A stretch of 64,000 nt of DNA, from the IMG/VR virus record IMGVR_UViG_3300025838_000023, positions 32,001-96,000 of that record. One strand, 5' to 3'. A program made the position numbers and the translations under genes. This DNA is from a virus (lineage: Duplodnaviria; Caudoviricetes). The notes under the pieces were generated by a model. It had not been told where the DNA came from and made no database searches. It saw only the letters and a list, made by a program, of their open reading frames with translations. Each line of letters starts with the position of its first letter. Positions within the stretch are counted from its first letter, which is position 1. This document shows, in pieces, positions 7,159-55,399 of this stretch.

Positions 7159-7350
7159 TTATTTTTCCTTTTTTTCGTAATCCAAAGTCATGTTAAGATG
7201 CACCCAATTAGTAGGTTCATGCATAAGGCAAACTGGAACATCTTCGGATTTCATCATAAAGTTTGGGAAATCGTCAGGAGTAACAATTTGAAGGTGGATT
7301 CCATGTTTTGCTAATGCTTCGACTAATCCATAAGCAGGAATATCAGGCAT
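7159..7350 (-). CDS. Hypothetical protein
   Basis: ORF. Confidence 0.4.
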   Translation of the reverse strand: MPDIPAYGLVEALAKHGIHLQIVTPDDFPNFMMKSEDVPVCLMHEPTNWVHLNMTLDYEKKEK

Positions 7351-7578
7351 ATCTAATCCTGTTATAAATTTTGGTAAGTTTTCGGTTATATTAAAATCTA
7401 AAAAAATTCACAAGTTCTTCGGAAGGATTTTTTATTTCCATATAAGATTCTGGACTACATTTTGGGCAGAGTCGAGCTTCCTCAATCTGTTTATATAAGG
7501 TTTCTTGAAATTTGACTATACCTTCTTGGCTAGTTACATTATAATAGCAATTTGGACAAGAATCATGGTATCGTTCAC

Positions 7579-7761
7579 TCATATTATAAATTCCTTTCCA
7601 CAACGTTTACAAGTATGGGTATAAAAGTGCCAAGGTTCTCCAATTTTCGAATCTGGATAATCATGGTAATCATTCCAATTTTGTTTTCCCTTGGACATTT
7701 CACATATTATATTATCATTAAATCTAAATAATGCAATTAGTGTTTTTATTAATTTTTTCAT
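7579..7761 (-). CDS. Hypothetical protein (DYHDY..CKRCG)
   Basis: ORF. Confidence 0.5.
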   Translation of the reverse strand: MKKLIKTLIALFRFNDNIICEMSKGKQNWNDYHDYPDSKIGEPWHFYTHTCKRCGKEFII

Positions 7762-8777: not shown

Positions 8778-8784
8778 TTCAATA

Positions 8785-9057
8785 TTATTTATCTGAAATT
8801 ATCGTTTTTTGAGAAGATAAATAGTGTTTTTTATTAAAAAAAGTGGCCCTGCATGAACAAGAACAAAATTCAATTTTGTTTGAATTACAATATGATTTAT
8901 ATGGAATTGCACCATTACATTCCATACACAATTTTGGAGTTTTTTCATACATAACTTGTTTCTTCGTTATATATTTTAGATTTAGATGAAATTTTAAATG
9001 ACTTGATAATCCACGTTTAGTAGAAAATTGTTTATTACACTTATTACACTTATACAT
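8785..9057 (-). CDS. C2H2 zinc-finger protein (possible endonuclease remnant)
   Basis: CNKC..H..H; CMEC; FCSCSC. Confidence 0.6.
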   Translation of the reverse strand: MYKCNKCNKQFSTKRGLSSHLKFHLNLKYITKKQVMYEKTPKLCMECNGAIPYKSYCNSNKIEFCSCSCRATFFNKKHYLSSQKTIISDK

Positions 9058-9058
9058 A

Positions 9059-10471: not shown

Positions 10472-10511
10472 GATCAGTATAGTTTAACATAGAACCAAAA
10501 CATATCAAATC

Positions 10512-10751
10512 TTATATAGAATCTTCTTGGAATTTCATACCAATCAAATCTGCAAATCCTATTGTTCCTTCGTTATAATGGTAATGCGCAATTTGTCGAG
10601 TAGCTTTATTAACATTTTCTTGACCAACAGTTTCGTTTTCTAATAATGAACTAAATTGATTGCGAACTTTTTCTGCATCTTTATAACCAATATTGATAAC
10701 TTGTTCGCACATTCTACATCGGTACAATAATGTTGCTTTAGATTCGTTCAT
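10512..10751 (-). CDS. Hypothetical protein
   Basis: ORF. Confidence 0.5.
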   Translation of the reverse strand: MNESKATLLYRCRMCEQVINIGYKDAEKVRNQFSSLLENETVGQENVNKATRQIAHYHYNEGTIGFADLIGMKFQEDSI

Positions 10752-10961
10752 CGTGCTCCTTATTATTTGGTTTATTATTGTATATTTGAATCATTTCCAA
10801 TGCTTTCATTTTATCTTCGTCCGTTGGTTGAGATTCTGATAACATGAAAACTCCTTGTGGAATTTCTTCACCATTAATATACGCATCCCGACATAAAAAC
10901 CACATATTAGCCGCGAATTCAATTTGTTCCTGTGTTTTGTTTTTTAAATAGTTTTTATTAT

Positions 10962-11312
10962 TCATACTGATTTTCCGACAACCACATAACCATTTTCCCA
11001 ACAAACAGTCCAAGGTTTTACTTTATTTTCGTTTTCTATATCCTTTAACATTTCAATCATCTTCAATGCTGATTCTAAACTATCAAACGATTTTCCGCCA
11101 TCAAAATCTCTCGAAAAATCTATTTGTTTTTTGTTTCCATTATATACAACAACTCCACTATAAGTTTCCCACAAATCATAGGAATACTTATATAAAAATC
11201 CCATAGGAACTTTCTTTTGTAACTGTTGTATTTTATAATAATTTTCGTTGGTTATAATACGAAAATCTCCTACTTTAGATTTCGGAACTTTATCAGAATG
11301 TATTTCAGGCAT
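10962..11312 (-). CDS. Hypothetical protein
   Basis: ORF; start MPEIH chosen because upstream codons lie in the IS end. Confidence 0.5.
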   Translation of the reverse strand: MPEIHSDKVPKSKVGDFRIITNENYYKIQQLQKKVPMGFLYKYSYDLWETYSGVVVYNGNKKQIDFSRDFDGGKSFDSLESALKMIEMLKDIENENKVKPWTVCWENGYVVVGKSV

Positions 11313-11355
11313 ATGTTTTATGTGGAGGTATATGAGATATACAAACAATAGAAGT

Positions 11356-12729
11356 TTAGTAAAAAGTATAACAATTTACAGAACTTTTATATGATTTGAA
11401 CTTAAAACCCTTATATGGATCACATTCATCTAAGGAAACTCTATATCTCTCTTTAGAGTTTTTTATATTAGAACATGTAGATATCCATTTATATTCATTA
11501 GTCAGTGAATTCTCCGTTTCCTTCCAATGGTGTAAGAATTTTGACTTAATATTAAATAAAGGAAAATACATATCTTTATTTCTACCAATTTTATACTGAA
11601 ATCCTCTTCTAGCTATTTCAATTGCTGCATTTACACAATCATAACTATTATATTGTAAGTTACCTATATAAGAACTATAAGCAGCAGTTACTTCATATAT
11701 TTTAACTCCTAAACATGGAATGTTATTTTTTAATTGATTTATTATAAGATTTCTATCCCATTTATTGTTACATAATCTATTATAATTCTTTCCTTTCTTT
11801 TTATCATTCGATTCCATTTTAAGTTCTTCTAATATACAATATTGAACTTTAAAATGTTTACATAAAGATATAATAGATTTTGATATTTCTAGAGTTTCAT
11901 GTTTTAGTTTATTATTCTTATAAATTGATTTAGGATGTGATGATTTGAATCCAGAAGAATCCGTCAGGCCGTTTAATTTATACATTTGTTTATGTATTAC
12001 TTTAAACTCATCATTTTTGAAATCTATAATAGCCAATCCAACATAATTCGGGTTTAAATCGATACCTAATATTCTTCCTTGTTTGAGTTTAGGATTTAGA
12101 ATTGAATAAGATACGGTTTCTGGTTCGTGGGTTTCAATAACTTTTAATAATTCAGGTTTATCATATGTTAGATAAATATATTCAGCATCTAGTTTAATTC
12201 CATATGAAAATAACTTCTTAGAAGAATATTTTTGTATATTTTCTAAAGTTTTCTTTATATTCTTTTTTGGAGTTAATATTTCCAGATTAAATTTCTTCTT
12301 ATTTAGTTTGAACAAAAATGAAAGTGATTCTAGGTATATTTCTATATGTCGATTTCCATTAGTTGCTATATCTCCTTGGAATTGAATTGAACGTAATTTT
12401 TTATTTGAGTATTCTTCTTTTGATATTATATTTTTAGCTCTTTTAATAAAATTTGATTTGCCACCAAAGATACATAATTTATTCTTTTCTAATTCAATAT
12501 CTGATGAATACATTCCTTTAGCTTCTATTATTGCAGTATCTAATATTCTTGAGTTCAAATTTGATATATTATTTAAATAATTCACAAGAGGTTTGATTTC
12601 TTTAGTATCTAAATTATCATAAAATCTATTATAAGCAAATCGAATTACATTAGTATATTCATTTCTAATGAGTTTTAGGTAATCATAGAACTCTTTTGAT
12701 GCTGTATATTTAAATTTTAGAGTTATCAT
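11356..12729 (-). CDS. tnpB: IS607-associated TnpB RNA-guided nuclease (no Zn finger)
   Basis: RuvC motifs ILGIDLNP, ILEEL, AAYSSYIGN..DCVNAAIEIARRG. Confidence 0.88.
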   Translation of the reverse strand: MITLKFKYTASKEFYDYLKLIRNEYTNVIRFAYNRFYDNLDTKEIKPLVNYLNNISNLNSRILDTAIIEAKGMYSSDIELEKNKLCIFGGKSNFIKRAKNIISKEEYSNKKLRSIQFQGDIATNGNRHIEIYLESLSFLFKLNKKKFNLEILTPKKNIKKTLENIQKYSSKKLFSYGIKLDAEYIYLTYDKPELLKVIETHEPETVSYSILNPKLKQGRILGIDLNPNYVGLAIIDFKNDEFKVIHKQMYKLNGLTDSSGFKSSHPKSIYKNNKLKHETLEISKSIISLCKHFKVQYCILEELKMESNDKKKGKNYNRLCNNKWDRNLIINQLKNNIPCLGVKIYEVTAAYSSYIGNLQYNSYDCVNAAIEIARRGFQYKIGRNKDMYFPLFNIKSKFLHHWKETENSLTNEYKWISTCSNIKNSKERYRVSLDECDPYKGFKFKSYKSSVNCYTFY

Positions 12730-13321
12730 TAGATATTTCTTTTTTTAGTTTATTTAATGTTCTTCTGTGAGAATACATTTTATCAGAGAAGCAATCTATA
12801 ATAGATATCAAGTCTTCTGTTAGTTCTTGTTCGTATGTTTTATTTTGTATAGTATCGTTTATTACTAATATTTTTGTTCCAAAGTATTTAAAAATTGATT
12901 CAAGGAGTTCGAATCCAAATCTGACTAATCTATCTTTATTTTCTATTATGATTAGTTCTACATTTCCTTTTATGGTTTCTTGTATTAGGTTATTGAATCC
13001 ATTTCTTTCGAAGTTCATTCCACTTTTGATATCTTCGAGTTGAGAATCTAGATGTATATTATTTAAAATACACCAATTATAAATTCTATTTGATTGTTCT
13101 TTTAGTTGGGATTTTCTATCATTGGAAGAGACTCTAGCGTATGATATATTGATCTTATTTTTCTTTTCTTTTTTTATCCCTATTAGTTTGTATACTGAGT
13201 TATCATCGTAGATGTAATGTTTATCATTGATTTTTGTGTATTTTATGTTACCATTTTTTACGTAATTATATAGAGTTTGTCTAGTTACGTTTAACAGTTT
13301 CATTACTTCTTTTGATTTCAT
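12710..13321 (-). CDS. tnpA: IS607 serine recombinase TnpA
   Basis: N-terminal MerR-like HTH; YARVSS, DIKSG, ENKDRLVRFGFE, ELTEDLISII. Confidence 0.93.
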   Translation of the reverse strand: MKSKEVMKLLNVTRQTLYNYVKNGNIKYTKINDKHYIYDDNSVYKLIGIKKEKKNKINISYARVSSNDRKSQLKEQSNRIYNWCILNNIHLDSQLEDIKSGMNFERNGFNNLIQETIKGNVELIIIENKDRLVRFGFELLESIFKYFGTKILVINDTIQNKTYEQELTEDLISIIDCFSDKMYSHRRTLNKLKKEISNDNSKI

Positions 13322-13431
13322 TCTAATTATATTTAACCATTTTTGTATAAAAAACTTGATTTGTTTTTATTTTATTTTATAAATTTATGGAAAATATGTT
13401 GACATTTCTATCATATGCCTCCATAATCTAA

Positions 13432-14850
13432 TTAGAGTTCTGCGTTTTTCCGAACTTCATCAAAAGTGTATGTTTTCAACATCATACCATTTTCAAAAAC
13501 AGTAACCAATTGACTTTCTCTATCTCCTAAATCCTTTTCTGGAATAGTTTGGTATTTTCCGTTTTCATCTTTAATAAGTTCCAATCTTCCCTTTTTCGAC
13601 ATCTTACCTTTATCATCAACAGGGTCTTTATATACTTCCACCCATTCATCTCCAAGCTTTGCAGCAGAACACTTAAATGCAAACTTTTGATCATCTCTCG
13701 AATGTCCCTGCAATAATTGGCCCCCCATTCCGAAGATAATACAATCAGTCGAATATCCATTATTAGTTACACAGTCAAGAATATATTTGATAGTTTCATG
13801 GCATAATCCATCACCATAGATCACTCCTATCTTTGGATTTAACACTTTATACCCTTTACTATTTATGGTATGTCCAAAGTATTTATCCAATTCTCGAATA
13901 ACACGAATGGAGGTTTCAACAGGATCACCACTATCAGGACGAACTACAAACTTTGCAAATCCTGTTTTTTGTCCACGATTAAGAATAGGCAATTTTAATT
14001 CTGTACCAAAAAATTCAATAGCCTTCCAAATATTATAACTATCAGATACAACACTTAATATTCCTTCTGGATATTCCTCAACAAATCTACGATATGCATC
14101 AAATTCGTGCTCTCTACCATAGATGCAAGTCGTTGAATGTTCTGTAGCCGCTACCGAATGTCCAACTCCCTTATCTGCACCATAATATCTTCGTGCATAT
14201 ACAATACCTTGAAGTGTATCAGTTCCTTTGAAATTTACTAGATGTGCGCTACCACCAATTCCAGCACTTTCCACACTAGAAACCCCACGGAATCCAAAAC
14301 AATTCAAATGAAAAGGAGAAACACCAGTATCACTACTAAACTTTGCGTATTGCCCTATGGTTTTTTTAATTTGATAACTTGTCGAACAAACCGAAATCGG
14401 GTACCATATTTCGTGTAAGACCGTTTCAGACCAATTGGTAAGCCATGCCAATTCTTCATCAGTAGATTCTACAATCACTAAAACATTCCGAGTTCCAACT
14501 ACTGATCCTTCTCTTACTGCACGAATTTTTATAGGCAATTTACCACCATGAACTTCAAGAATTCTTTCCCAACCTTTACGATTGAAATATTCATGAGTAA
14601 AAAATACATCACCCAAAATATCATCAGCATCATCAAGCATCCAAGGCTCGACAACAACACCAGAGAAATATTTCTCTAATACCATTTGTAGTCCGAAAAA
14701 TACCGTTTCGTCATATTTTCCTCCCCTACTTTCCAAATAACTATAAATTACTTTAGTGTTTTTTGGATATTGCAACCAATGTGTTTCCTTATAAGCATCT
14801 GCCAAAAGGATCGTGTTTTCTGTTCGTCTTGTCATATTATCTTTTATCAT
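13432..14850 (-). CDS. nadV: Nicotinamide phosphoribosyltransferase (NAMPT)
   Basis: DAYKETHWLQYP, FGFRG, HLVNFKGTDT, ATEHS, VSDSY, VRPDSGDP, FGMGG. Confidence 0.93.
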   Translation of the reverse strand: MIKDNMTRRTENTILLADAYKETHWLQYPKNTKVIYSYLESRGGKYDETVFFGLQMVLEKYFSGVVVEPWMLDDADDILGDVFFTHEYFNRKGWERILEVHGGKLPIKIRAVREGSVVGTRNVLVIVESTDEELAWLTNWSETVLHEIWYPISVCSTSYQIKKTIGQYAKFSSDTGVSPFHLNCFGFRGVSSVESAGIGGSAHLVNFKGTDTLQGIVYARRYYGADKGVGHSVAATEHSTTCIYGREHEFDAYRRFVEEYPEGILSVVSDSYNIWKAIEFFGTELKLPILNRGQKTGFAKFVVRPDSGDPVETSIRVIRELDKYFGHTINSKGYKVLNPKIGVIYGDGLCHETIKYILDCVTNNGYSTDCIIFGMGGQLLQGHSRDDQKFAFKCSAAKLGDEWVEVYKDPVDDKGKMSKKGRLELIKDENGKYQTIPEKDLGDRESQLVTVFENGMMLKTYTFDEVRKNAEL

Positions 14851-38763: not shown

Positions 38764-40005
38764 CTATTTTCTATTCTTGATATCAGATAAAAGTTCTTCC
38801 AGAACCAAATTTAAGTTTTTAATTCCTAAATTCCCCTTTCCATGCACTCGCAAACCAACATTTTCATCTTCTACATCTCTATCTCCAATTACTAACATAG
38901 TATGAGATTTTTCTTGTTCTGCCTTTCGTATCTTATTTTTAATGTTATCATTCGACAAATCAGATTTAACTCTAATACCACTATACAATAATTTCATTTT
39001 AATAAATTCTGCATATTTCAGAACAGACTCGGTATTTTTAACCGTCATAATATTAATTTGTATTGGGGAAAGCCATAACGGAAAATTGCCATTATAATGT
39101 TCAATAAGAAATCCTATAAATCTTTCATGTGTACCCAATGGAGCACGATGAATACATAAAGGAGTTTCCTCAGTGTTATTTTCAGTTTTATATTTTAAAT
39201 TGAATCTAGCAGGAACAGCAAAATCTATTTGGTTTGTGGCAAGAGTGAATTCTTTTCCTGCCGTTGACCAAACTTGAACATCAATTTTAGGACCATAAAA
39301 TGCAGCTTCATTAGGAACTTCAACAAAATTAATACCACTTTTAATTAAAGCATTACGTAACATATCCTCGGTTTTCTTCCATAATTCAGGAGAGTCTACA
39401 AATTTCTGGCCGAGTTTAGATGAGTCGTGAGTAGAAAACCGCATTAAATATTTTTCAATACCAAAGATTTTAAAATATTTGAGATACATTTCATTAACTG
39501 CATTGAATTCTTTTTCAAATTGATCTTCGGTACAATAAATATGTGCATCATTCATTTGCATACTTCTTACTCGCATTAATCCAAAAAGTTCTCCTGATTG
39601 TTCATAACGATAACAAGTCCCATATTCAGCAAGTCGTAAAGGTAAATCACGGTAGCTTCGAGGAGATGAACCAAATATTTTATGATGATGTGGGCAGTTC
39701 ATTGCTTTGAGATAATATTTCTCAATATTCCCACTCTCGCTTTCCATATTCATAAAAGGAAACATCCTATCCTCATAATATGGAAGATGCCCGCTTGTCA
39801 GATATAAATTTTCTCTAGCAATATGAGGGGTACGTACTCTATCATATCCCGCAAGAAATTCAGTTTCTTTTGCCAGTTTTTCAAGTTCTTCAATTAAAAC
39901 CGTTCCACTTGGCAACCAAAGCGGAAGTCCTGCCCCCACATCATCATCAAAACAAAACAGTTTCAAAGTTTTCCCTATTTCCCTATGATCATTTATCTCT
40001 ACCAT
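38764..40005 (-). CDS. thrS: Threonyl-tRNA synthetase lacking the N-terminal TGS/editing domains
   Basis: DHREIG, SGHLPYY, KAMNCPHH, SYRDLPLR, RYEQSG, AFYGPKID, HRAPLGTHERF. Confidence 0.95.
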   Translation of the reverse strand: MVEINDHREIGKTLKLFCFDDDVGAGLPLWLPSGTVLIEELEKLAKETEFLAGYDRVRTPHIARENLYLTSGHLPYYEDRMFPFMNMESESGNIEKYYLKAMNCPHHHKIFGSSPRSYRDLPLRLAEYGTCYRYEQSGELFGLMRVRSMQMNDAHIYCTEDQFEKEFNAVNEMYLKYFKIFGIEKYLMRFSTHDSSKLGQKFVDSPELWKKTEDMLRNALIKSGINFVEVPNEAAFYGPKIDVQVWSTAGKEFTLATNQIDFAVPARFNLKYKTENNTEETPLCIHRAPLGTHERFIGFLIEHYNGNFPLWLSPIQINIMTVKNTESVLKYAEFIKMKLLYSGIRVKSDLSNDNIKNKIRKAEQEKSHTMLVIGDRDVEDENVGLRVHGKGNLGIKNLNLVLEELLSDIKNRK

Positions 40006-45594: not shown

Positions 45595-45698
45595 TGGAGG
45601 GCTTCAACAGGAACTTACCCTGTTCGTATTGTAACATAATCAATCTCGATCTTTCGAAGATTCACTCAGTATGATTATGGTATACTACAATTTCGCCC
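45595..45698 (-). ncRNA. tRNA-like RNA: acceptor + T arm + one long hairpin
   Basis: GGGC/GCCC-TCCA; ACAGG/CCTGT; long stem capped by TTCG. Confidence 0.5.
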
Positions 45699-45706
45699 AT
45701 TTAAAT

Positions 45707-45856
45707 TGGTTCTAGAGGTTAGATTCACACTAACTTAGTCTTGTCGAAGGTTTTAATTTTTGACTACTTAAAGCTTCTATAAATTATTTTCTCGTAGTAT
45801 GCCATGATAATACTCTTTGGACGCAATACTCATAATTTACTTACAGCAACTCTAAA
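45707..45856 (-). ncRNA. Expanded tRNA-like RNA (~150 nt)
   Basis: TTTAGAG/CTCTAGA-ACCA; T arm GTTAG-TGTGAAT-CTAAC. Confidence 0.5.
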
Positions 45857-45953
45857 TTATAGGCGGGTTGAAATGTGTCACTCAGAACATTGCAATCTTC
45901 TCAAGCACCTTTTTATTGGCTAATCGAATTCGCCACGCCGATCTTGAAAATTA

Positions 45954-46305
45954 TGGTGGAGAGCAGGGAGGATCGAACTCCCTGTCCTAAAAAAACTTCA
46001 TTTATATATCTACATGCTTATATTCTTTAATGTATTCGGTAGCATAACAAAGAATAAAACTTTCTACCATAGTTAAATTATTTTCTAGCATCCGTCTCAC
46101 AAATATAACGAGAAACTCGACGGACTATCCTATGCAGCACGTTTTCAAATATAGGAGTCTTTGAAACGTGGATTAACTTAAGCAGCTAACGCTAGTTCTG
46201 TATTATCAGCACTTATCTTTTCGATTGATTTTTAAAGAAGCCAACAATCATCTTCTACATGCAACAATAAACTCGATCTTTTTAGTCGAATCCAAGTAGC
46301 TCCCC
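45954..46305 (-). ncRNA. ssrA: tmRNA
   Basis: GGGGAGC..GGATTCGAC 5' end, G3-U pair, T arm + CCA; tag (A)ADNTELALAA*. Confidence 0.93.
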
Positions 46306-46310
46306 AAAAA

Positions 46311-46385
46311 TGGTAGGCATGGAAGAAATTGCATCCTCACCAAGAGCTTCGTAAACTCGTGTGCTATCTGTTACACTACACGCCC
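46311..46385 (-). tRNA. tRNA-Arg(ACG)
   Basis: Loop TT-ACG-AA, CCA. Confidence 0.85.
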
Positions 46386-46509
46386 ATTTAAAATTCTTCG
46401 CTAAAAATAATACCTACCAAGGCACTAAGGAATTGAACCATTTATTCTTAGCGAAAAGTAATTGTAATAAGTTCTAGAATATTTCAATTACTTTCTTTTA
46501 TATAAAATT

Positions 46510-46585
46510 TGGTAGGCATGGAGAGAATCCCACTCTCACCCTTCGGTTTCGAAGACCGATGCGCTAATAATTACGCTACACGCCC
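46510..46585 (-). tRNA. tRNA-Arg(TCG)
   Basis: TCGGT-CTTCGAA-ACCGA, CCA. Confidence 0.85.
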
Positions 46586-46592
46586 ATAAATT

Positions 46593-46667
46593 TGGGGGTT
46601 TAGTTCGGTTACTCTCCGAATCCGGTAAATTCACAGTTTACAGTGCTAATATTACACCACAAAACCC
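46593..46667 (-). tRNA. tRNA-His(GTG)
   Basis: GTAAA-CTGTGAA-TTTAC, CCA. Confidence 0.85.
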
Positions 46668-46715
46668 ATCTAAAAACTTTTGGCATTGTATTTCCGCTAT
46701 ACGAAAAGCTAATAT

Positions 46716-47089
46716 TCGTCATAACCACTACTCACAATCAGAAGATATCATTCCGATATTCTATAGTGGGGTTGGCTTATTTGATTCCCATTAACTTTAA
46801 AGGATTCGAACCTTTGATTCTGCCTTATTATCTAAATTCATCCAAAACTTACCGTAGTCGTATTGCAAATCCGAGCCTATGCAGTTTTGGCAGTATTATA
46901 TGTTATGGAGTCCACGTTCCACTCCCGTAACCTTTATAATACTGAAATTTGATGCCCTGCTACCATTACACCACAGATACCACAAATCGTCATAACCAGC
47001 TACTATATCATATGATCATCTCTGATACTTCGTAGTGGGGTAGGCTTACTTGATTCATTGTTTATATACATGAACGGACTCGAACCGTT
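46716..47089 (-). repeat. Two copies of a T-arm + hairpin RNA motif (46716-46815, 46987-47089)
   Basis: GGTTCGARTCC..GAATCAARTAAGCCWACCCCACTA..TGGTTATGACGA in both. Confidence 0.65.
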
Positions 47090-47118
47090 TCTTTCACCTT
47101 ACATTCTTAAAAAATTAC

Positions 47119-47205
47119 CGGATGGCTGATATCCCGCCTACCATGCCCTTTTAGAGCACCATCGATTTAGCAAATCGCGCTAGTCACTCGACTAGTTAAC
47201 CATCC
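47119..47205 (-). tRNA. tRNA-Ser(GCT), no encoded CCA
   Basis: Loop TT-GCT-AA, long V arm. Confidence 0.75.
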
Positions 47206-47355
47206 ATATTAAAAAATTCTGAGTAAATATCAATCTCCCATAGGAGACAAATGTTATAGCTTTATTACATTAAGATTTGTTGTTACCATAAAAGCAATAC
47301 TCTCACAACTCTAATCCGATTATTACTCAACGTTATCCGCTAAGATAACGAAAAT

Positions 47356-47442
47356 TGGAGTGTAGTTAGGGGATCGCACCCTACGTAGGCTTTCGCCCAA
47401 CTGGTTTGCAAGCAGCAAAGTTCACTAGCTCTCTCACTACAC
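47356..47442 (-). tRNA. tRNA-Cys(GCA), long V arm
   Basis: Loop TT-GCA-AA; V arm GGGC-GAAA-GCCT; CCA. Confidence 0.75.
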
Positions 47443-47517
47443 ATTAAAAGTGACCCGCTAATATTTTACAACCATATGCAGGGCTGGTTGGATATGATTA
47501 CTACCATATCAAAATTA

Positions 47518-47793
47518 TTACCATGTTACATTTCCATCTTTAATCCATCCATGAAACTTACAACTACTATCTGGAAAATCACAGTTAATAGAAGGAGTTA
47601 CTGATAGATTTGAAATGTCTCCAGATTTATTCCAAACTGCTCCAGAATCATAAATAGGCGGCAATTCAAAATTAACTAAAATAGAATGTCCAGAATCGCA
47701 TTTCGGACAAACAAATCTTAATACTTTATCCGATCTTTCATTGTATCGAATCATCTCACCTTCTAGTTTCTCTAATGATACTAAATTACTCAT
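47518..47793 (-). CDS. DUF6527-like protein
   Basis: F.CPKC..GH; LSVTPSI; C.FHGWI.DG. Confidence 0.7.
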   Translation of the reverse strand: MSNLVSLEKLEGEMIRYNERSDKVLRFVCPKCDSGHSILVNFELPPIYDSGAVWNKSGDISNLSVTPSINCDFPDSSCKFHGWIKDGNVTW

Positions 47794-47938
47794 ACTATTA
47801 TTTAGCAAACTTTTAATCCTTATAAATTCATATCAAAGATAAAACTTCATAAATATTAAAACCATTGCTAATAGATAAATAACTATATGAATAAAGATAC
47901 CATACTTCTAGAAGAATTATATATGAAAATCGTAGAAG

Positions 47939-48303
47939 AGTTATCATAAGCATAGAAGAATATTACTATTTTCTAGATTTATGCCTTAAAGACTTTTTAT
48001 TCTATTTTATAGGATTTAAAAGGAAATCTATAACTCAATTTAGATTTCTTTAATTTGGAATATAACGTTTCTATGAACCAATTTTAGTATTTGATCTACC
48101 ATTTTCTTCCAATGAGTAGGTAGAATACTAAAACCAATTCAAAGATATTTTATATCCATTTTATCATCTTTCAATGATAAAAATTGTTTTATTATAATAG
48201 TATTTATTCTACTTTATATCAAAATCAAGAGATAAATAATTTAAATTGTATAATATTTTTAACTTATCTTAAAAATGTTATATTATGTATTAAGTTTTAT
48301 TAG
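47939..48303 (-). mobile_element. Non-coding IS607-derived mini-element A, copy 2
   Basis: Copy of 31419-31800; precise removal restores the reading frame. Confidence 0.88.
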
Positions 48304-48646
48304 ACCAATTCGGAAATGCTACTCTCATATGGCTAGAAAAAGATGGAACAGTTTATGATACAGAAGAAACCCAACATGGAATCTACGTAGCGGATAATGC
48401 CTCTTTATTTGGCGTGAATTATAACTTCGCAAAAAAGACTTTCGATAAATATGGAGACGAAGGAATTGATGAAGCAGCAGCAATAATGTGTGAACAAGCC
48501 TTCAAAAAAGGTTGGATGCGTGTTGTTAAAGTGCCTTGGAATAAAAAGATTTTCGTCGAAGGAAACGAACCAACAAAAGCACAAAAACATGTAATCGAAG
48601 ATTGGTATTTCGAAGATACTAGTTGGGATGTCATTTGGCAAAGATG

Positions 48647-49878
48647 GGTTGGTAACAGTAGTTTGAAATTCTAAAAAATCTAAAGTTATAAAAATAATTC
48701 ATTATTATGGGTTAAATTACAAGAAAAGTAAAACACATTTAGATAAATATAAATGTGAAGATAATAAGAGCAGTTAAATGCACAAACAAATTTGCTACTA
48801 AAAAGAAGCAAGATGTTCTTACATCTTTACTTGCCGAATACGGCAATGTTGTAAATTTCTTCATTGAATTCTTTTGGTTAAAAGATAAACTTCCAACTAA
48901 GAACGATCTTTTAAAACATATAGTTGATCTACCAATACAAACAACTTGGCTTTCAGCCAGATTACGTAAAACTGCTGCTAGAGAAGCTATAGATATGATC
49001 TTAGCAGTAAAAGAAAGATGGAAAGATAAACCAGATAAAATAAATAAACCAACACACCAAGGTAAAAGAATGTGCTGTTCTTCAACAATAGCAGAACTCC
49101 AAAACTCAAAATCTTCATTCGATAAATACCTTAAAATAGGTTCTGTTGGTAAGAAAATTAAACTAGAAATACCAATCAAAAAACATAAACAGTTTAATTA
49201 TTGGGAACGTCAAGGCAGACGCCTTAACTCATATATTATAACTAAAGACTATACTCAGTTCGTTTTCGAAATCGAAACTGGAACTAAAAAGGATCAAGGT
49301 AAAACAATTGGTATTGATACTGGTATTAAATGTCTAGCAACTCTGTCCAATGGACAAAGAATAGGAGACAAAATAGAAGATATAATAATTAAAATCAATA
49401 GATGCAAACATGGTTCTAAAAGACAAAAGCAATTAAGGAATTATCTACGTCATTATATTGATACTAGTGCAAAAGAAGTTTTTAAGCAGAATCCTAATTT
49501 GAGTAGGATTATAGTCGAAAGACTAAGTAATATGAATTTTAAATCGAAGATTAAGCGTAAGCTTGGTCGTAAGATGAGAAAAACTATCGGTAGTTGGAAC
49601 TACAGATATTGGCTATCTAGAATGGAAAGAAACTGTGAGGAGAACCGTGTTCGATATTCCAGTATAAATCCAGCTTATACGAGTCAATGCTGTAACCAAT
49701 GTGGTCATACTGACAGGATGAATCGATCAAAACAAGATACTTTTTATTGTGTTAAATGTGGTCATACTGACCATGCTGACCATAATGCAGCTAAGAATAT
49801 TTTGGATCGTGGAATCTCCCTAGTTTATCGTCGGGGGTAATAGTTTAAATTTTAGATTTTTTAGAATTTAAACAACGG
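48647..49878 (+). mobile_element. tnpB-only IS607-like element
   Basis: GG at both junctions; subterminal inverted repeat aaattctaaaaaatctaaa; removal extends the host ORF. Confidence 0.75.
48755..49840 (+). CDS. tnpB: TnpB RNA-guided nuclease (Zn-ribbon type)
   Basis: IGIDTG, IVERL, INPAYTSQCCNQCG, C.KCGH..HADHNAAKNI. Confidence 0.92.
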   Translation: MKIIRAVKCTNKFATKKKQDVLTSLLAEYGNVVNFFIEFFWLKDKLPTKNDLLKHIVDLPIQTTWLSARLRKTAAREAIDMILAVKERWKDKPDKINKPTHQGKRMCCSSTIAELQNSKSSFDKYLKIGSVGKKIKLEIPIKKHKQFNYWERQGRRLNSYIITKDYTQFVFEIETGTKKDQGKTIGIDTGIKCLATLSNGQRIGDKIEDIIIKINRCKHGSKRQKQLRNYLRHYIDTSAKEVFKQNPNLSRIIVERLSNMNFKSKIKRKLGRKMRKTIGSWNYRYWLSRMERNCEENRVRYSSINPAYTSQCCNQCGHTDRMNRSKQDTFYCVKCGHTDHADHNAAKNILDRGISLVYRRG

Positions 49879-49937
49879 TCAGTAATCAATTCGGACCACC
49901 AAAACCAATCACTCTGTTCAACGCAGAATAAAAAAAT

Positions 49938-50028
49938 TGGCGGAAGACTGAGGAGTTGCGCCCCAAACCTTTTAGAGTTCCTTCTGTTTTCAAGGCAGAG
50001 TCAGTATCGCTTGTCTGATTAATCTTCC
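49938..50028 (-). tRNA. tRNA-Ser(TGA)
   Basis: Loop CT-TGA-AA, long V arm, CCA. Confidence 0.85.
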
Positions 50029-50045
50029 ATAATAAAATTTAAAAT

Positions 50046-50119
50046 TGGTAGGAGATAAAAGTGCCGCCCTTTTGACTCATGGATGTAAACCAAGCATTAT
50101 ACTGTTTAACTAATCTCCC
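50046..50119 (-). tRNA. tRNA-Val(TAC)
   Basis: Loop TT-TAC-AT, CCA. Confidence 0.8.
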
Positions 50120-50130
50120 ATTACTAAATT

Positions 50131-50206
50131 TGGAAGACCCACCCCGATTTGCACGGAAGGACGATGAAGTTCAAAGCTTCATATGCTACTTTTACATCAT
50201 GGGTCT
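50131..50206 (-). tRNA. tRNA-Gln(TTG)
   Basis: TGAAG-CTTTGAA-CTTCA, CCA. Confidence 0.8.
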
Positions 50207-50216
50207 ATTAAAATCT

Positions 50217-50303
50217 TAGAAGTGTACGGTAATGCTCCGTATCGAGGCCCCAATCTAGGACAAAAAGTTTATAAAACTTTCTTGGCTACTTAGCCACACT
50301 TCC
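50217..50303 (-). tRNA. tRNA(TAT), Ile-type anticodon, tiny D loop and long V arm
   Basis: AAAGT-TTTATAA-ACTTT; GGAAGTG/CACTTCT. Confidence 0.65.
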
Positions 50304-50312
50304 ATTTAAAAT

Positions 50313-50390
50313 TGGTTGCGGAAGGGCCGAACTCGAATCGGGCAGTTTTAGCTTATGAGACTAACGTGTTTACCTTGACACTACCCCGCA
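50313..50390 (-). tRNA. tRNA-Met(CAT)
   Basis: TTAGT-CTCATAA-GCTAA, CCA. Confidence 0.8.
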
Positions 50391-50403
50391 ATATAAATCT
50401 GTA

Positions 50404-50475
50404 AACCCCATCATGGAATCGCACCACAATTCTGTCTTTCAGAGAGACTCGTAATAACTGTTATACGAATGGGGT
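50404..50475 (-). tRNA. tRNA-Gln(CTG)
   Basis: Loop CT-CTG-AA. Confidence 0.78.
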
Positions 50476-50483
50476 ATAAAAAC

Positions 50484-50594
50484 TTGCGGAGATGGGATTC
50501 AAACACCATCATAGCATATTAATCATTTTGCGAACAATTAATACTATTTGCCAGAGTTATGAGCACTGTTAGCCTCTCAGGGCTTGTCTCCGCT
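50484..50594 (-). tRNA. tRNA(CAT) with ~40-nt variable arm
   Basis: GCGGAG/CTCCGC; loop CT-CAT-AA. Confidence 0.55.
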
Positions 50595-50614
50595 ATTTAA
50601 AAACTTTAAAAATT

Positions 50615-50700
50615 TGGTAGCAGAAAAGAGAATTGCACTCTTACAGTCTTACGACAATTGCTTATGAAACAATCCCCACACTAATACGGGTTGCTCTGCC
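50615..50700 (-). tRNA. tRNA(CAT), Met/Ile2, with V arm
   Basis: ATTGT-TTCATAA-GCAAT, CCA. Confidence 0.7.
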
Positions 50701-50817
50701 ATTTTTCAAAAATTGTAACCTTTACTAAAATTTTGGCACAATGCCTATGCTTAGTTAATAATACAAACTTCGAAAACTTGTATTTAAAACTCTTACATAA
50801 CATCATATTAAAAAATT

Positions 50818-50893
50818 TGGTGGACCGTAAGGGATTCGCACCCTTCACACAAATATTGCAAGTATTCATCGCCCCTGTGGAACATGACAGCCC
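50818..50893 (-). tRNA. tRNA-Ala(TGC)
   Basis: G3-U pair, loop CT-TGC-AA, CCA. Confidence 0.82.
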
Positions 50894-50976
50894 ATATTAA
50901 AAATTTGTTGTAGTATCGAGAATCTACTACATTTATCTTCCGAATTTAACGGACGAATCTCGTCGTTTAAAGAAAT

Positions 50977-51056
50977 TGGTGGAGAATATCGGCATCGAAC
51001 CGATCTGAAAATTTCTGATTGCAAATCAGACGATCACCCAAGCAATCCCATCCCCC
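50977..51056 (-). tRNA. tRNA-Ala(TGC)
   Basis: TCTGA-TTTGCAA-TCAGA, G3-U pair, CCA. Confidence 0.82.
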
Positions 51057-51066
51057 ATATAAAAAT

Positions 51067-51159
51067 TGGCACCAAGACTAGGACTCGCACCTAGATACCG
51101 TTCAAGACGGATTACACGAAGGTAACAACTTCGCCACTTACTAGTTAGTGTATCTTGGT
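51067..51159 (-). tRNA. tRNA-Asn(GTT), long V arm
   Basis: CGAAG-TTGTTAC-CTTCG, CCA. Confidence 0.75.
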
Positions 51160-51166
51160 ATAAAAT

Positions 51167-51241
51167 TGGCTCCAACGCTAGGTTCTGCCCCTAGACCGTC
51201 TCGCTTAACAGGCGAATGGACTACTGTTATCCCACGTTGGA
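51167..51241 (-). tRNA. tRNA-Asn(GTT)
   Basis: Loop CT-GTT-AA, CCA. Confidence 0.85.
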
Positions 51242-51249
51242 ATTTAAAT

Positions 51250-51325
51250 TGGCACCGTTGACAGGACTCGCACCCGCTAAAAACAGCTTGAAAAACTGCT
51301 CACTCGACTCTTTGTATTCAACGGC
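51250..51325 (-). tRNA. tRNA-Glu(TTC)
   Basis: Loop TT-TTC-AA, CCA. Confidence 0.8.
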
Positions 51326-51389
51326 ATAAAATTTGATCATAAATGTATATTTGCACCCACATTTTAATATAAATTGATTAAATATAAAT

Positions 51390-52136
51390 ATGAAGGTTCA
51401 ATTCAAACATACAGAAGAATCAAAAGCAAACTTAAGTATAAAACGGAAAGAATGGCTTAAAAATAATCCTGATAAACATCCTTGGAAACGTCATGATAAA
51501 TTTAAATCAAAACCATGCGAAAACGCAAAACAGTTTTTGAGAGATAATAATATTCCATTCATTGAAGAATATACTCCAGAAAATATAGATAGAAATTATT
51601 CTATTGATATTGCATTACCTGATAAAATGATTTCTTTGGAGATAAACGGTAATCAACATTATAATCGAGACGGAACATTAAAACCTTATTATCAGGAAAG
51701 ACAAGATATATTAGAAAAAGCTGGATGGATAGTATACCAAATACATTATTCTGCATGTTTTAATCTTGATAAGTGGAAAGATTTTTTTAATATACTTAAA
51801 TATGCTGTGGTTAAAGTCGATTTCGATTATTTTACATATGTTCCTAAGAAATTAGAAAGAAAAACACTACATGATAAATGTGGTTGTGGTAATAAAAAAC
51901 TTATTAAGTCTAAAAATTGTTTTATATGTAATAATAAAATGCCTAAAATATATAAAAGAAAAACTGTTAGACCAACAAAAGAATTACTTACAAAATTAAT
52001 ATGGGAAAAACCATTAACTAAAATAGGAAAAGATTTTAATGTAACCGATAATGCTATAAGAAAATGGTGTAAATTATATAACATAACAGAATTTCCAAAA
52101 CGTGGATATTGGCTGAAATCTAAATTGGTAAACTAG
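51390..52136 (+). CDS. Free-standing endonuclease (NUMOD3-like + DUF559/Vsr-like + HTH)
   Basis: HTEESK..LS; YSIDIA..EINGNQHY; GW; C-terminal HTH. Confidence 0.75.
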   Translation: MKVQFKHTEESKANLSIKRKEWLKNNPDKHPWKRHDKFKSKPCENAKQFLRDNNIPFIEEYTPENIDRNYSIDIALPDKMISLEINGNQHYNRDGTLKPYYQERQDILEKAGWIVYQIHYSACFNLDKWKDFFNILKYAVVKVDFDYFTYVPKKLERKTLHDKCGCGNKKLIKSKNCFICNNKMPKIYKRKTVRPTKELLTKLIWEKPLTKIGKDFNVTDNAIRKWCKLYNITEFPKRGYWLKSKLVN

Positions 52137-52207
52137 ATGGGACTTGCACCCCACATGTTTTCTAATTACTCTTTCACCTGTTTAGAAGACAGAGGAGATA
52201 CTAGTTT
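52126..52207 (-). tRNA. D-armless tRNA-Arg(TCT)
   Basis: AAACTAG/CTAGTTT, loop CT-TCT-AA, CCA. Confidence 0.65.
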
Positions 52208-52210
52208 GTT

Positions 52211-52278
52211 TGGAGCCGTATAGGATATTGCAATCCTCCTGCTATATTACGAGTATAGGCTGTGTGCTTACATACGGC
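52211..52278 (-). tRNA. tRNA-Thr(CGT), reduced D arm
   Basis: CTATA-CTCGTAA-TATAG, CCA. Confidence 0.72.
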
Positions 52279-52287
52279 ATAGAAAAT

Positions 52288-52370
52288 TGGTGCGTAGGAG
52301 AAGAATTTGCACTTCCACAGATTAACGGGTGTTTTACAGACACTTGGACGCACTCTTGTCCATCCTACGC
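52288..52370 (-). tRNA. tRNA-Tyr(GTA)
   Basis: Loop CT-GTA-AA, CCA. Confidence 0.8.
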
Positions 52371-52383
52371 ATAATTAAATTCC

Positions 52384-52456
52384 CGGTATGGACGAGTGCT
52401 GCCCTCGCTTAAACTTGATTGACAATCAAGTATCGATGCTGTTCGAACTCCATACC
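52384..52456 (-). tRNA. tRNA-Asp(GTC)
   Basis: CTTGA-TTGTCAA-TCAAG. Confidence 0.78.
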
Positions 52457-52530
52457 ATTAAAAATTGGTCAAGTTATGTAGATTGCCTCCACTACTAAGG
52501 TTTACTTGCACGACCTAGCTATATTTAAAT

Positions 52531-52604
52531 TGGCGCGACATAGGGGTTACGCTCCCCTGACTCCTCTTGGACAGAGAGATAGGTTACTATTACTTCAATG
52601 TCGC
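52531..52604 (-). tRNA. tRNA-Asp(GTC)
   Basis: Loop CT-GTC-CA, CCA. Confidence 0.82.
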
Positions 52605-52613
52605 ATTTAAAAT

Positions 52614-52689
52614 TGGTAGCCTCAGATGGATTTTCACCATCTTCTAAAGGTTGAGAACCTATGATCCTGTGTCATTAGACGATGAGGCC
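52614..52689 (-). tRNA. tRNA-Glu(CTC)
   Basis: Loop TT-CTC-AA, CCA. Confidence 0.82.
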
Positions 52690-52697
52690 ATTTAAAT

Positions 52698-52773
52698 TGG
52701 TCGGATACCAGAGAATCGCACTCTGTCACCCCACTTCCAAGGCGGGTAAGCACACTTGCGCTATTCGTATCCG
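52698..52773 (-). tRNA. tRNA-Pro(TGG)
   Basis: CCCGC-CTTGGAA-GTGGG, CCA. Confidence 0.82.
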
Positions 52774-52782
52774 TTATAAAAT

Positions 52783-53463
52783 TGGTTTTCGTTGCAGCTT
52801 TCGACTCTGCTATAGTAGCTACAAATGCGATGTGCTAATGCTACCGTGTTTCCCATGCAATGCCTCTCATATACCCTTTATGGTATTGTCACTGATTTAT
52901 TATAAGTGCCTGTCTAGCCTTTCTACTAGCTCACGTTTTTTATGGTTAGCCCATCGCATTGTTACACTTTATCTTCTATCAGCGTTTTACATATACTATC
53001 TATTACCCACATATACTATACAGTTAGACAAAACATCAATTTTTATATTTTTAAATGGGCAGGGACTGTAAGCTCCTACCAACCATAGAAGAAAGTGAAT
53101 AACTTGGTGTTTATTCCGATCAACGAATACGGTTATGGATGCATAATACGGGTCTTCGGGTATTTCATAGGGTTACATACCTTTTCCGATTCGGCTATAC
53201 ATACACTGGTTAATTACAGTAATAAAACAATTTAATTTTCTGATAACCTATCTTACGATTAAACCTTTAGATTCTATCTTATTTTATACCTTATCTTCCT
53301 CTTTTATTTTTGTTTCGAATATTAAAATAACCCCTCTCTTCTAATACTCTGTTCTTATTTAATCATAAATAATTTTTAAATCAACTACTATTTGCATTTA
53401 ATTCATATCATTCCTTTATAAAAATGTATATTATATGCGACTAGTCGCTAACACTAAACGAAA
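52783..53463 (-). ncRNA. tRNA-like RNA with a ~175-nt structured insert in place of the anticodon loop, interrupted by mini-element B
   Basis: TTTCGTT/AACGAAA-ACCA; ATAGTA/TACTAT; T arm GCAG/CTGC. Confidence 0.55.
53019..53454 (-). mobile_element. Non-coding mini-element B, copy 2
   Basis: Copy of 34007-34442 with a handful of SNPs. Confidence 0.82.
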
Positions 53464-53467
53464 TTGT

Positions 53468-53551
53468 TGGCACGGAAATGAGGTAACGCTCCCCTTAGTA
53501 TGAATACGCTAGTTTTGGAGACTAGATGCAATCCTTCTTGCGAGTTTCCGT
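53468..53551 (-). tRNA. tRNA-Trp(CCA)
   Basis: CTAGT-CTCCAAA-ACTAG, short V arm, CCA. Confidence 0.78.
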
Positions 53552-53563
53552 ATGATAAATTGT

Positions 53564-53653
53564 TACAACGGGTGGGCTTCGCTCCCACGGTGAGGCTTGT
53601 AACCTGTCGGATTAAAAGTCCGATACTTTCGACTGGACTAAGTGAACCGTTGC
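53564..53653 (-). tRNA. tRNA-Lys(TTT), long V arm
   Basis: TCGGA-CTTTTAA-TCCGA. Confidence 0.75.
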
Positions 53654-53661
53654 ATTAAAAG

Positions 53662-53736
53662 TGGTGGGGTCACGGGGACTTGCACCCCGACTTAACGATT
53701 TAAAAGACCGTTGTGCAGCTATTACACCATAACCCC
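53662..53736 (-). tRNA. tRNA-Lys(TTT)
   Basis: Loop CT-TTT-AA, CCA. Confidence 0.87.
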
Positions 53737-53748
53737 ATTATAAAAATT

Positions 53749-53827
53749 TGGTGGAATCGGAGGTAGTTGCAACCTCACGAATGGTCTAGTTAAGAGCTAG
53801 TTGCCCGTCTACTGTAGCTTCGATTCC
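53749..53827 (-). tRNA. tRNA-Lys(CTT)
   Basis: Loop CT-CTT-AA, CCA. Confidence 0.82.
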
Positions 53828-53872
53828 TTTTGTGTCGTTATTTTTCTATGGTTGAAAAAATAACACTAAAAT

Positions 53873-53947
53873 TGGAGCACATGATGGGTATCCCGCCCAC
53901 ATAAACTTCTTTGGAAGAGAAGCGCATTAGTTGTCTGCCACATGTGC
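53873..53947 (-). tRNA. tRNA-Gly(TCC)
   Basis: CTTCT-CTTCCAA-AGAAG, CCA. Confidence 0.85.
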
Positions 53948-53955
53948 ATTAAAAT

Positions 53956-54043
53956 TGGAGCCTACAGAGGGACTCGCACCCCCGGTGAACCTTGCGGTTA
54001 CAAGCTTACAAAGCTAGTCCTATCGCTACTAAGGGATGTAGGC
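53956..54043 (-). tRNA. tRNA-Thr(TGT), long V arm
   Basis: Loop TT-TGT-AA; V arm AACC-GCAA-GGTT; CCA. Confidence 0.78.
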
Positions 54044-54050
54044 ATTAAAT

Positions 54051-54118
54051 TGGAGCCGTATAGGATATTGCAATCCTCCTGCTATATTACAAGTATAGGC
54101 TGTGTGCTTACATACGGC
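54051..54118 (-). tRNA. tRNA-Thr(TGT), reduced D arm
   Basis: Identical to 52211-52278 except the wobble base. Confidence 0.72.
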
Positions 54119-54130
54119 ATTAATAAAATC

Positions 54131-54202
54131 TAGCGCATAAGGGTTATGCTCCCTTGTCTATTCCTTGAAGGGGAATCGTCCTAGCTATTAGACGAATGCG
54201 CC
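54131..54202 (-). tRNA. tRNA-Glu(TTC)
   Basis: ATTCC-CCTTCAA-GGAAT. Confidence 0.78.
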
Positions 54203-54211
54203 ATTTAAAAT

Positions 54212-54287
54212 TGGTAGTTCTAGAGTTGGTTGCAAACTCATCCATAATTTCTTGAGAATTATCGCTCTGCTCTTGGCGTATAGAACC
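54212..54287 (-). tRNA. tRNA-Leu(CAA), short V loop
   Basis: TAATT-CTCAAGA-AATTA, CCA. Confidence 0.78.
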
Positions 54288-54298
54288 ATTTTTGAAAT

Positions 54299-54373
54299 TG
54301 GTGCCTATGGAGAGATTTGCACTCTCACTGTTCGGTGTCTAAGGCCGATTTCTCTGCATTGGAATACATAGGC
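54299..54373 (-). tRNA. tRNA-Leu(TAG), short V loop
   Basis: Loop CT-TAG-AC, CCA. Confidence 0.8.
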
Positions 54374-54420
54374 ATGTGTTATTAATATTTTCTATAGTTG
54401 GAAATATCAAAACTAAAAAT

Positions 54421-54495
54421 TGGTGCTCATAGTCGGTCCCGCCCCGACACTGTTCGAATTTTAAGTTCGATTTCTCTGCGTTGGAATATATGAGC
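54421..54495 (-). tRNA. tRNA-Leu(TAA), short V loop
   Basis: TCGAA-CTTAAAA-TTCGA, CCA. Confidence 0.8.
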
Positions 54496-54505
54496 ATTTT
54501 GAAAT

Positions 54506-54584
54506 TGGTTGCGGGGAGTGAAAATTGCATTCACTGTCAAGAAGCTTATGAGACTACTGCTGGTCTACTCCAGTCCACCCTGCA
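54506..54584 (-). tRNA. tRNA-Met(CAT)
   Basis: Loop CT-CAT-AA, CCA. Confidence 0.75.
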
Positions 54585-54591
54585 TATAAAT

Positions 54592-54667
54592 TGGTCCCTC
54601 GTGTTGGCTTTGCTCCAACCACCTAACGGTTATCAACCATTTGCTCTCCTGAATGAGCTAACGAGGG
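54592..54667 (-). tRNA. tRNA-Ile(GAT)
   Basis: Loop TT-GAT-AA, CCA. Confidence 0.85.
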
Positions 54668-54676
54668 ATTAAAATT

Positions 54677-54750
54677 TGGAGCGGGTAATCGAAATCGAAT
54701 CGATATTTTCGCCTTGGCAAAGCAACGTAATACCACTATACCATACCCGC
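54677..54750 (-). tRNA. tRNA-Gly(GCC)
   Basis: Loop TT-GCC-AA, CCA; first tRNA of the array. Confidence 0.85.
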
Positions 54751-54842: not shown

Positions 54843-55160
54843 GAGACTTGCCAATAATTTTATATAATTGGCAAGTCTCTTTTGGGAATACTGCCGAAAT
54901 TTTTAAGGTTTGGCAGTATTCCCAAAGTTTTGTTACAGTTTGTTATGAACTAGTGGTATGGGTTTCACGCCATTTGACTAATTCCTGTAACGGTTTAACT
55001 ATAAAGAACAAACACCTATTATTCCGAGTTTCGCTATTTCTATTGATAAGCCGATTTCTCTTTCGAGGGTGTGTCGGACATTCGTTTCGCTTCTGGTTGA
55101 AACTCTCAAAACTCCTTTTAAATTTCCTAAATGGCCTACTATATTTCGGTGTTCCACGTA
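54843..55160 (-). ncRNA. Structured leader RNA of the tRNA array
   Basis: Pseudoknot-compatible pairings plus two long perfect hairpins. Confidence 0.45.
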
Positions 55161-55197: not shown

Positions 55198-55236
55198 ATA
55201 AAAAACTCGAACCTTTTTATTTTTCGGGTTCGAGTT
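55198..55236 (-). terminator. Attenuator terminator upstream of the tRNA array
   Basis: AACTCGAACC/GGTTCGAGTT + T tract. Confidence 0.85.
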
Positions 55237-55275
55237 AAGAAAACTTTTTATAAGTCTAACTATTTTCTTAACTCG
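55231..55275 (-). promoter_or_regulatory. Antiterminator hairpin overlapping the terminator and the leader stop codon
   Basis: 13-bp perfect stem CGAGTTAAGAAAA/TTTTCTTAACTCG sharing 55231-55236 with the terminator. Confidence 0.8.
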
Positions 55276-55399
55276 TTTGCCCTCCTTGTGTATACTGTTC
55301 AAATGACCAGCAACGTTCACAAGTGGGCAGACTATTACCATTAATGGATTTTCTATCCATCTTGGTAAGTTGTCTTGCTATATGTAAGTTCGCTTTCAT
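55268..55399 (-). CDS. Putative attenuator leader peptide (43 aa)
   Basis: MKANLHIARQLTKMDRKSINGNSLPTCERCWSFEQYTQGGQTS*; not in the ORF track (<60 aa). Confidence 0.7.
   Translation of the reverse strand: MKANLHIARQLTKMDRKSINGNSLPTCERCWSFEQYTQGGQTS

Follow-up and report, generated by a model that had tools for sequence, protein, structure and literature searches.

The reason why phages possess large tRNA arrays has long been debated, with codon compensation and the replacement of tRNAs destroyed by the host as the competing answers. The locus considered here raises a more specific one, namely whether such an array may be switched on by the state of translation itself. It lies within a stretch of 64,000 nucleotides (the window), which corresponds to positions 32,001 to 96,000 of the IMG/VR record IMGVR_UViG_3300025838_000023. 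A preliminary description of this sequence had proposed a translational attenuator, in which a short ORF sampling many codons decides whether transcription proceeds into the tRNA genes. This model is supported in silico by alternative folds, codon diversity, conservation of the ORF and its stop, and covariation in a relative. We consider it very probable that the leader acts as a transcription attenuator coupled to the ribosome, which checks the decoding of nearly every amino acid and controls transcription of the phage tRNA/tmRNA operon.

The window is contained in a linear virus record of 106.8 kb, which is around half complete, has a GC content of 30.8% and originates from a bog lake. The T4-type tail gene gp15 is present; the phage is T4-like, and its host is probably a member of the Verrucomicrobia. 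As the phage threonyl-tRNA synthetase (ThrRS) shares 75% identity with Verrucomicrobiota enzymes, the host would be Chthoniobacterales-like. The ThrRS (window 38764-40005, minus strand) has 413 amino acids and comprises just the catalytic and anticodon-binding domains, whereas the enzymes closest to it have around 610 amino acids and harbor an N-terminal editing domain that is absent from the phage enzyme. The record also encodes an RNA ligase and a CCA-adding enzyme (G000 28.2-29.2 kb and 102.5-104.0 kb), which together with the tmRNA and ThrRS make up a tRNA repair and maturation kit. Identical copies of the window sequence are found in several JGI metagenomes, without variants. Use of the neighbouring genes and ThrRS as queries revealed no close phage in IMG/VR, and blastn of the window region against cultured phages gave no match.

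Anatomy of the leader and its competing folds

The features of the locus are collected in Table 1. The three sigma70 promoters that the preliminary description had placed ahead of the ORF were all found. Between the upstream gene and promoter P1 lies a perfect inverted repeat of 17 bp, with 38 nt in its loop (window 55783-55712), which may insulate the promoters.

Table 1. Features of the leader and the operon behind it, in window coordinates
Feature	Coordinates	Strand	Details
Sigma70-type promoter P1	55662..55690	-	TTGACA, extended -10 TAAGAT, A-rich upstream element
Sigma70-type promoter P2	55571..55598	-	Promoter scan
Sigma70-type promoter P3	55496..55524	-	Promoter scan
Candidate sensor leader ORF, 43 codons	55268..55399	-	19 amino acids, 35 codons; ortholog L397:13757-13882
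Hairpin in 3' half of ORF	55278..55330	-	-21 kcal/mol; -18 in L397, outer arms conserved
Shine-Dalgarno-like AAGGAGG, codons 38-40	55281..55287	-	Pairing with 16S tail
Antiterminator hairpin, 13 bp, stop codon in 5' arm	55231..55275	-	-19.6 kcal/mol
Intrinsic terminator, 10-bp stem, 13-nt loop, U tract	55200..55236	-	-13 kcal/mol
Structured non-coding RNA, first element after switch	54930..55157	-	75% identical in L397 (13970-14190)
Two long perfect hairpins before first tRNA	54843..54926	.	L397: two hairpins, different sequence, same place
Main tRNA array	45620..54750	-	First tRNA-Gly GCC 54750-54677, tmRNA 46305-45954; tRNA/tmRNA detection

The codon counts given earlier for the ORF hold, in that it lacks Val and uses all four Thr codons, three codons each for Gly, Ser and Leu, and both codons each for Cys, Lys, Asn and Gln. 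Its start is A-rich and without a Shine-Dalgarno (SD) sequence, as is likewise the case for the phage's own genes, and its start context scores at the 33rd percentile of phage genes and in the top 3% of other ATGs. The hairpin in the 3' half of the ORF is a candidate RNA-polymerase pause hairpin. The SD-like tract pairs with the 16S tail at -11.9 kcal/mol, against about -2.4 elsewhere in the ORF, and such a tract within the last eight codons is also present in the ortholog (L397) and in 29 of 31 leaders of a second family, both described below. Speculatively, it may keep the ribosome positioned on the antiterminator arm, or it could simply be a by-product of G-rich helix arms.

The perfect 13-bp hairpin (55275-55263 with 55243-55231), which had been reported to enclose the ORF stop codon in its 5' arm, was confirmed. 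The terminator fared less uniformly: its 10-bp stem (55236-55227 with 55213-55204) stands, but the six T residues said to follow it (55205-55200) include two bases of the stem. Positions 55236-55231 are common to the two helices. The leader terminator is not reported by a consensus terminator scan because its 13-nt loop places it outside the scan. Rfam models, including those for the T-box and cis-regulatory RNAs, gave no match at the leader, and a T-box riboswitch was rejected on that account. A terminator pattern had three matches in IMG/VR, all unrelated, and an antiterminator/terminator pattern had 113 matches in metagenomes, all of them unrelated repeats; the latter pattern is too strict, since a true ortholog carries compensatory changes.

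The antiterminator and terminator compete, and in silico the position of the ribosome selects the fold, as the attenuator model would have it. In these calculations the ribosome footprint was blocked at each codon in turn and the remaining RNA was folded to equilibrium, kinetics being ignored. A ribosome at codons 1-38, or no ribosome at all, is predicted to leave the antiterminator in place (probability around 0.95 or more). A ribosome at codons 40-44 is predicted to give the termination fold, with a terminator probability of around 0.96 at codons 41-44. The last new amino acid of the leader appears at codon 36, within the sensing zone.

Codon diversity and conservation in a relative

The codon diversity of the leader is above chance, with p=0.0025 for nucleotide shuffles and p=0.007 for dinucleotide shuffles. 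None of 21,348 gene windows of 43 codons reaches even 34 distinct codons, and the leader ranks first among the 247 short ATG ORFs of the genome, at 5.8 codons over expectation, with the next at 3.0. The diversity maximum coincides with the ORF's own coordinates. Stops included, 32 distinct triplets are also found in the two remaining frames of this DNA, so that the diversity statistic alone is not decisive; against a uniform draw from 61 codons the leader gives p=0.054, and its spread over codon classes, taken alone, is marginal (p=0.06). The term 'pan-codon' under which the leader was introduced is retained only in part: the amino-acid set and the spread over anticodon classes are kept, but not all codons are sampled (32 of 45 classes), and the sensing would be amino-acid-wide rather than pan-codon. 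The proposal that Val is missing from the leader because the array lacks a tRNA-Val was rejected, as the array carries tRNA-Val(TAC) at 50119-50049.

Comparison with a relative carries the argument further. With gp15 as the query, one close relative was recovered (64% identity), and a walk along its contigs led to L397, in which tandem promoters are followed by a 41-codon leader ORF (13757-13882) that holds all 20 amino acids in 34 different codons, a composition with a shuffle p of 0.01. Both helices are present as well, as are the 75% identical downstream RNA and, in the same order as in the window, tRNA-Gly(GCC) and tRNA-Ile(GAT); around 35 tRNAs follow in another assembly of the relative (L406). 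The two leader peptides are 43% identical (E=9e-8). The stop falls in the same alignment column, and the three indels between the ORFs are all multiples of 3. The codon changes comprise 19 nonsynonymous and 2 synonymous differences, including a Cys/Trp swap, and the conserved residues coincide with the RNA helices. In a neutral simulation, with indels not yet counted, frame and stop survive in 6% of runs. Taken together, the excess of nonsynonymous changes, the in-frame indels and the shared stop indicate that frame, length and composition have been selected, and that the peptide sequence has not.

These data also bear on the proposal that the product of the ORF is a small protein with a function of its own, the hairpins merely ending its transcript. 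A gene is called on the ORF in several assemblies and the ortholog shares 43% of its residues, but the substitution pattern, with its Cys/Trp swap, and the coincidence of conserved residues with the helices speak against a selected protein, as does the outcome of a protein search with the leader peptide, which matched itself only and found no family or protein homologue. We give this proposal almost no credence.

The helices themselves covary. Among the 9 core pairs of the antiterminator there are 3 double-compensatory changes in L397, and the terminator shows 2 double-compensatory changes and 1 wobble. Base 55233, which belongs to both structures, changes jointly with both of its partners, 55273 and 55207, whereas 55235 changes with 55271 and its terminator pairing stays as a G-U. 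In a comparison of this kind, a shared base that changes with both partners is the hallmark of a switch between two states. Moving the ribosome along the L397 leader gave the same switch outcome as for the window leader. It is highly unlikely that the reading frame is open by chance within a structured RNA that ends in a constitutive terminator, the array being served by other promoters. Long perfect palindromes do cluster in the region, triplet diversity is high in all frames, and candidate promoter elements occur downstream of the terminator; against this stand the covariation of the competing helix, the frame, stop and in-frame indels kept in L397, the gene-like start context, and the recurrence of the layout in over 100 loci of the second family.

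One ortholog of the window leader was found. The sequence of another close relative, G004, breaks off ahead of the array; more distant gp15 relatives with tRNAs (G005, G007, G032 and G033), as well as G002, showed no leader of this kind, which is thus not universal. Blastn of the L397 region against cultured phages and a tRNA-Gly pattern search gave no match. A short ORF in a family-level relative was considered as a leader and rejected as an unrelated basic protein; there (L046:7309-8000; L047:5050-5700) RNase P-like motifs occur in the non-coding stretch behind this protein. L397, from a related peat phage, also contains a region (6909-13357) in which a Cas3-like helicase and a 900-amino-acid protein with TNB and RuvC-like (Cas12-type) domains precede a CRISPR array (36-bp repeat, around 17 spacers). 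This region lies immediately upstream of the tRNA-operon promoters.

A second family of leaders

The search for short codon-diverse ORFs with overlapping hairpins before other phage arrays was productive: it yielded two more leaders of this kind and, from these, a second family (DRTPEI). The search pattern for this family fixes nothing but the helix cores and one short word in the reading frame, and gave 108 matches in IMG/VR, so that conservation of the cores is a selection criterion. In each of the 67 unique complete loci there is an ATG ORF of 43-64 codons whose stop precedes the terminator arm by 19-32 nt, and where the sequence extends far enough it always continues into tRNAs. One position beside the helix core, which the pattern leaves free, covaries in 28 of 31 divergent members. 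No match to cultured phages was found by blastn. In two loci (L149:5124-4740 and L152:1800-1400) the terminator is separated from the first tRNA by an ORF of around 50 amino acids and a further conserved non-coding RNA, and L149 has an extra promoter directly before that tRNA.

All 20 amino acids are held by 61 of the 67 loci and by 24 of 27 further loci, compared with 3% of control ORFs. Among the 31 divergent members, whose mean identity is 40%, 84% are complete, where column shuffling leads one to expect 25% (maximum 55% in 3000) and nucleotide shuffling 6%. The single Cys, Tyr and Phe residues shift between alignment columns, and in 20 of the 31 (5.5 expected) the full set has appeared by the time the switching zone begins. 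Cys is absent from one in six representatives. Synonymous choices are spread over anticodon classes in 30 of the 31 members, and U-ending codons of four-fold boxes are rarer than in neighbouring genes.

The window leader resembles this family in layout, length, switch direction, completeness and SD-like tail, and fits its architecture (41-55 codons, 19-20 amino acids, a tRNA array next) with 43 codons, 19 amino acids and 31 nt from stop to terminator. The antiterminator arm, however, ends inside the ORF in the DRTPEI family and spans the stop in the window leader. Detectable sequence homology was rejected, since the window leader scores 0 bits against the family profile, with its GGGTCC/GGACCC cores; the two leaders reflect either independent origin or divergence beyond recognition.

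This second family also bears on a further reading, in which a translation-coupled attenuator reports overall ribosome availability or speed, as altered by host shut-off, antibiotics or ribosome shortage, and codon diversity is incidental. The state without a ribosome is read-through both in the window leader and in L397, from which it follows that the switch must also respond to blocked initiation; the window leader lacks Val; and the uORFs of toiL (PMC12121999) and of the vmlR type (PMC9226507) sense general stress. However, completeness survives residue turnover far beyond the shuffles, the L397 ortholog holds all 20 amino acids, and completeness is reached before the switching zone, which a pure speed sensor would not need. 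We regard this reading as unlikely.

The downstream operon, the proposed mechanism and its relatives

The first element behind the switch, a structured RNA of around 230 nt directly after the terminator, has a GTAGGCC with GGCTTAT pairing conserved in both phages. The pairing of a GCCATTT/AAATGGC pseudoknot is not intact in L397. The RNA (55157-54930) has no Rfam match, and a pattern for it found no match in GTDB genomes. Of the genes said to follow the switch, the tRNA array and tmRNA are confirmed, but an RNase P RNA was not detected by Rfam. RNase P-like motifs (GAGGAAGTTCG ... ACAGAAAATCGGCT) are present at window ~44070-43755 (minus strand) in an RNA that the Rfam models miss. This RNase P-like RNA lies behind internal promoters at 45581 and 44228, nearer to it than the leader promoters.

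Further tRNAs reach to around 41450, also behind internal promoters, and with the main array all 20 amino acids are covered; tRNA-Trp(CCA), near 53551, was read by eye. No strong terminator was detected inside the array, and strong internal promoters at 45581, 44228 and 43581 serve its far end. ThrRS lies 15 kb downstream of the switch, behind internal promoters; directly after the switch are the RNA and tRNAs. Two further elements follow the terminator, namely a promoter-like site at 55165, which is weak, and a TAAATA located 13 nt ahead of the first tRNA; either may bypass the switch, in which case gating of the array would be only partial. Many of the array tRNAs escape the ARAGORN defaults, and the variable arm is short in several of the Leu tRNAs. 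A reduced D arm is seen in two short tRNA-Thr-like genes that are nearly identical to each other (54120-54055 and 52280-52215, minus strand; TGT and CGT anticodons).

Sequence and comparison establish the anatomy of the locus and selection for frame, length, stop position and completeness; from these we infer translation of the leader, pausing, coupling and the physiological trigger. RNA polymerase would pause near the in-ORF hairpin until the ribosome arrives. With fast decoding, transcription would stop at around 55200; if any of the sampled codons is decoded slowly, or if initiation fails, it would enter the array and phage tRNAs would be supplied. A literature search found no documentation of transcription-translation coupling in Verrucomicrobia. 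The likeliest purpose would be to make up for host tRNAs that are removed by tRNA-cleaving defences or by the decay of host RNA. Loss of tRNA is a more logical trigger than amino-acid shortage, because extra tRNA cures the former better and because phage tRNAs rescue phages from tRNA-cleaving defences (PMC11555353). Starvation would also trip the switch, and tRNA damage is not separable from starvation or blocked initiation. More tentatively, and with somewhat less than even confidence, unrelated large phages may have independently evolved a census leader that samples the host tRNA pool by codon class and turns on a replacement tRNA/tmRNA set specifically when defences cleave tRNAs, as an inducible, RNA-only counter-defence.

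The closest classical relatives are the trpL, hisL, thrL, pheL and ilvL attenuators, which comprise a promoter, leader ORF, pause hairpin, and competing antiterminator and terminator; in leaders of the trpL type a ribosome at the stop favours termination, and termination is also the untranslated default. The window leader shares the short ORF between promoter and regulated genes and the covarying, mutually exclusive helices. It differs in having no run of codons for one to three amino acids, in a read-through default, and in its target, which is tRNA genes rather than genes for amino-acid biosynthesis or synthetases.

The whiB7/wblC uORF attenuator of mycobacteria is nearer in logic. Its uORF contains 19 of 20 amino acids in M. 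smegmatis, stalling gives the antiterminator and read-through, and loss of the start codon raises expression (PMC10274678). It responds to knockdown of tRNAs and synthetases, and removal of a codon type abolishes a response; it is also Ala-enriched, and the M. tuberculosis version lacks several amino acids (PMC10274678). Both leaders thus sample nearly all amino acids with read-through as the untranslated default. Whereas the whiB7/wblC uORF controls a transcription factor in Actinobacteria, the phage leader gates a tRNA/tmRNA operon; it is compact (41-43 codons), is kept complete, and closes a direct tRNA feedback loop. With a tRNA array following it and a host that points to Verrucomicrobiota, it falls outside the whiB7/wblC locus family. 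In toiL and the vmlR leader, too, stalls at many uORF positions relieve repression, but these sense antibiotics and have protein targets, toiL acting via translation initiation and Rho; the abstracts of these papers do not report selection for amino-acid completeness (PMC12121999, PMC9226507). The switch logic is therefore already known from the whiB7 uORF, and the tRNA-array target and the selection for completeness appear undescribed. A literature search, with most subscription papers outside its reach, found no attenuator of phage tRNA arrays.

This would be the first attenuator for tRNA genes that we found described, and it appears in two or more phage lineages that are non-homologous and differ in their hosts. 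To report on tRNA nuclease activity or translation health, a 200-nt sensor of all amino acids would be useful. A sensor on the array also makes the question of why phages carry tRNAs testable, as the leader codons tell what the phage monitors and the inducing conditions tell what the array is used for. The phage probably makes its own tRNAs whenever ribosomes struggle with any codon.
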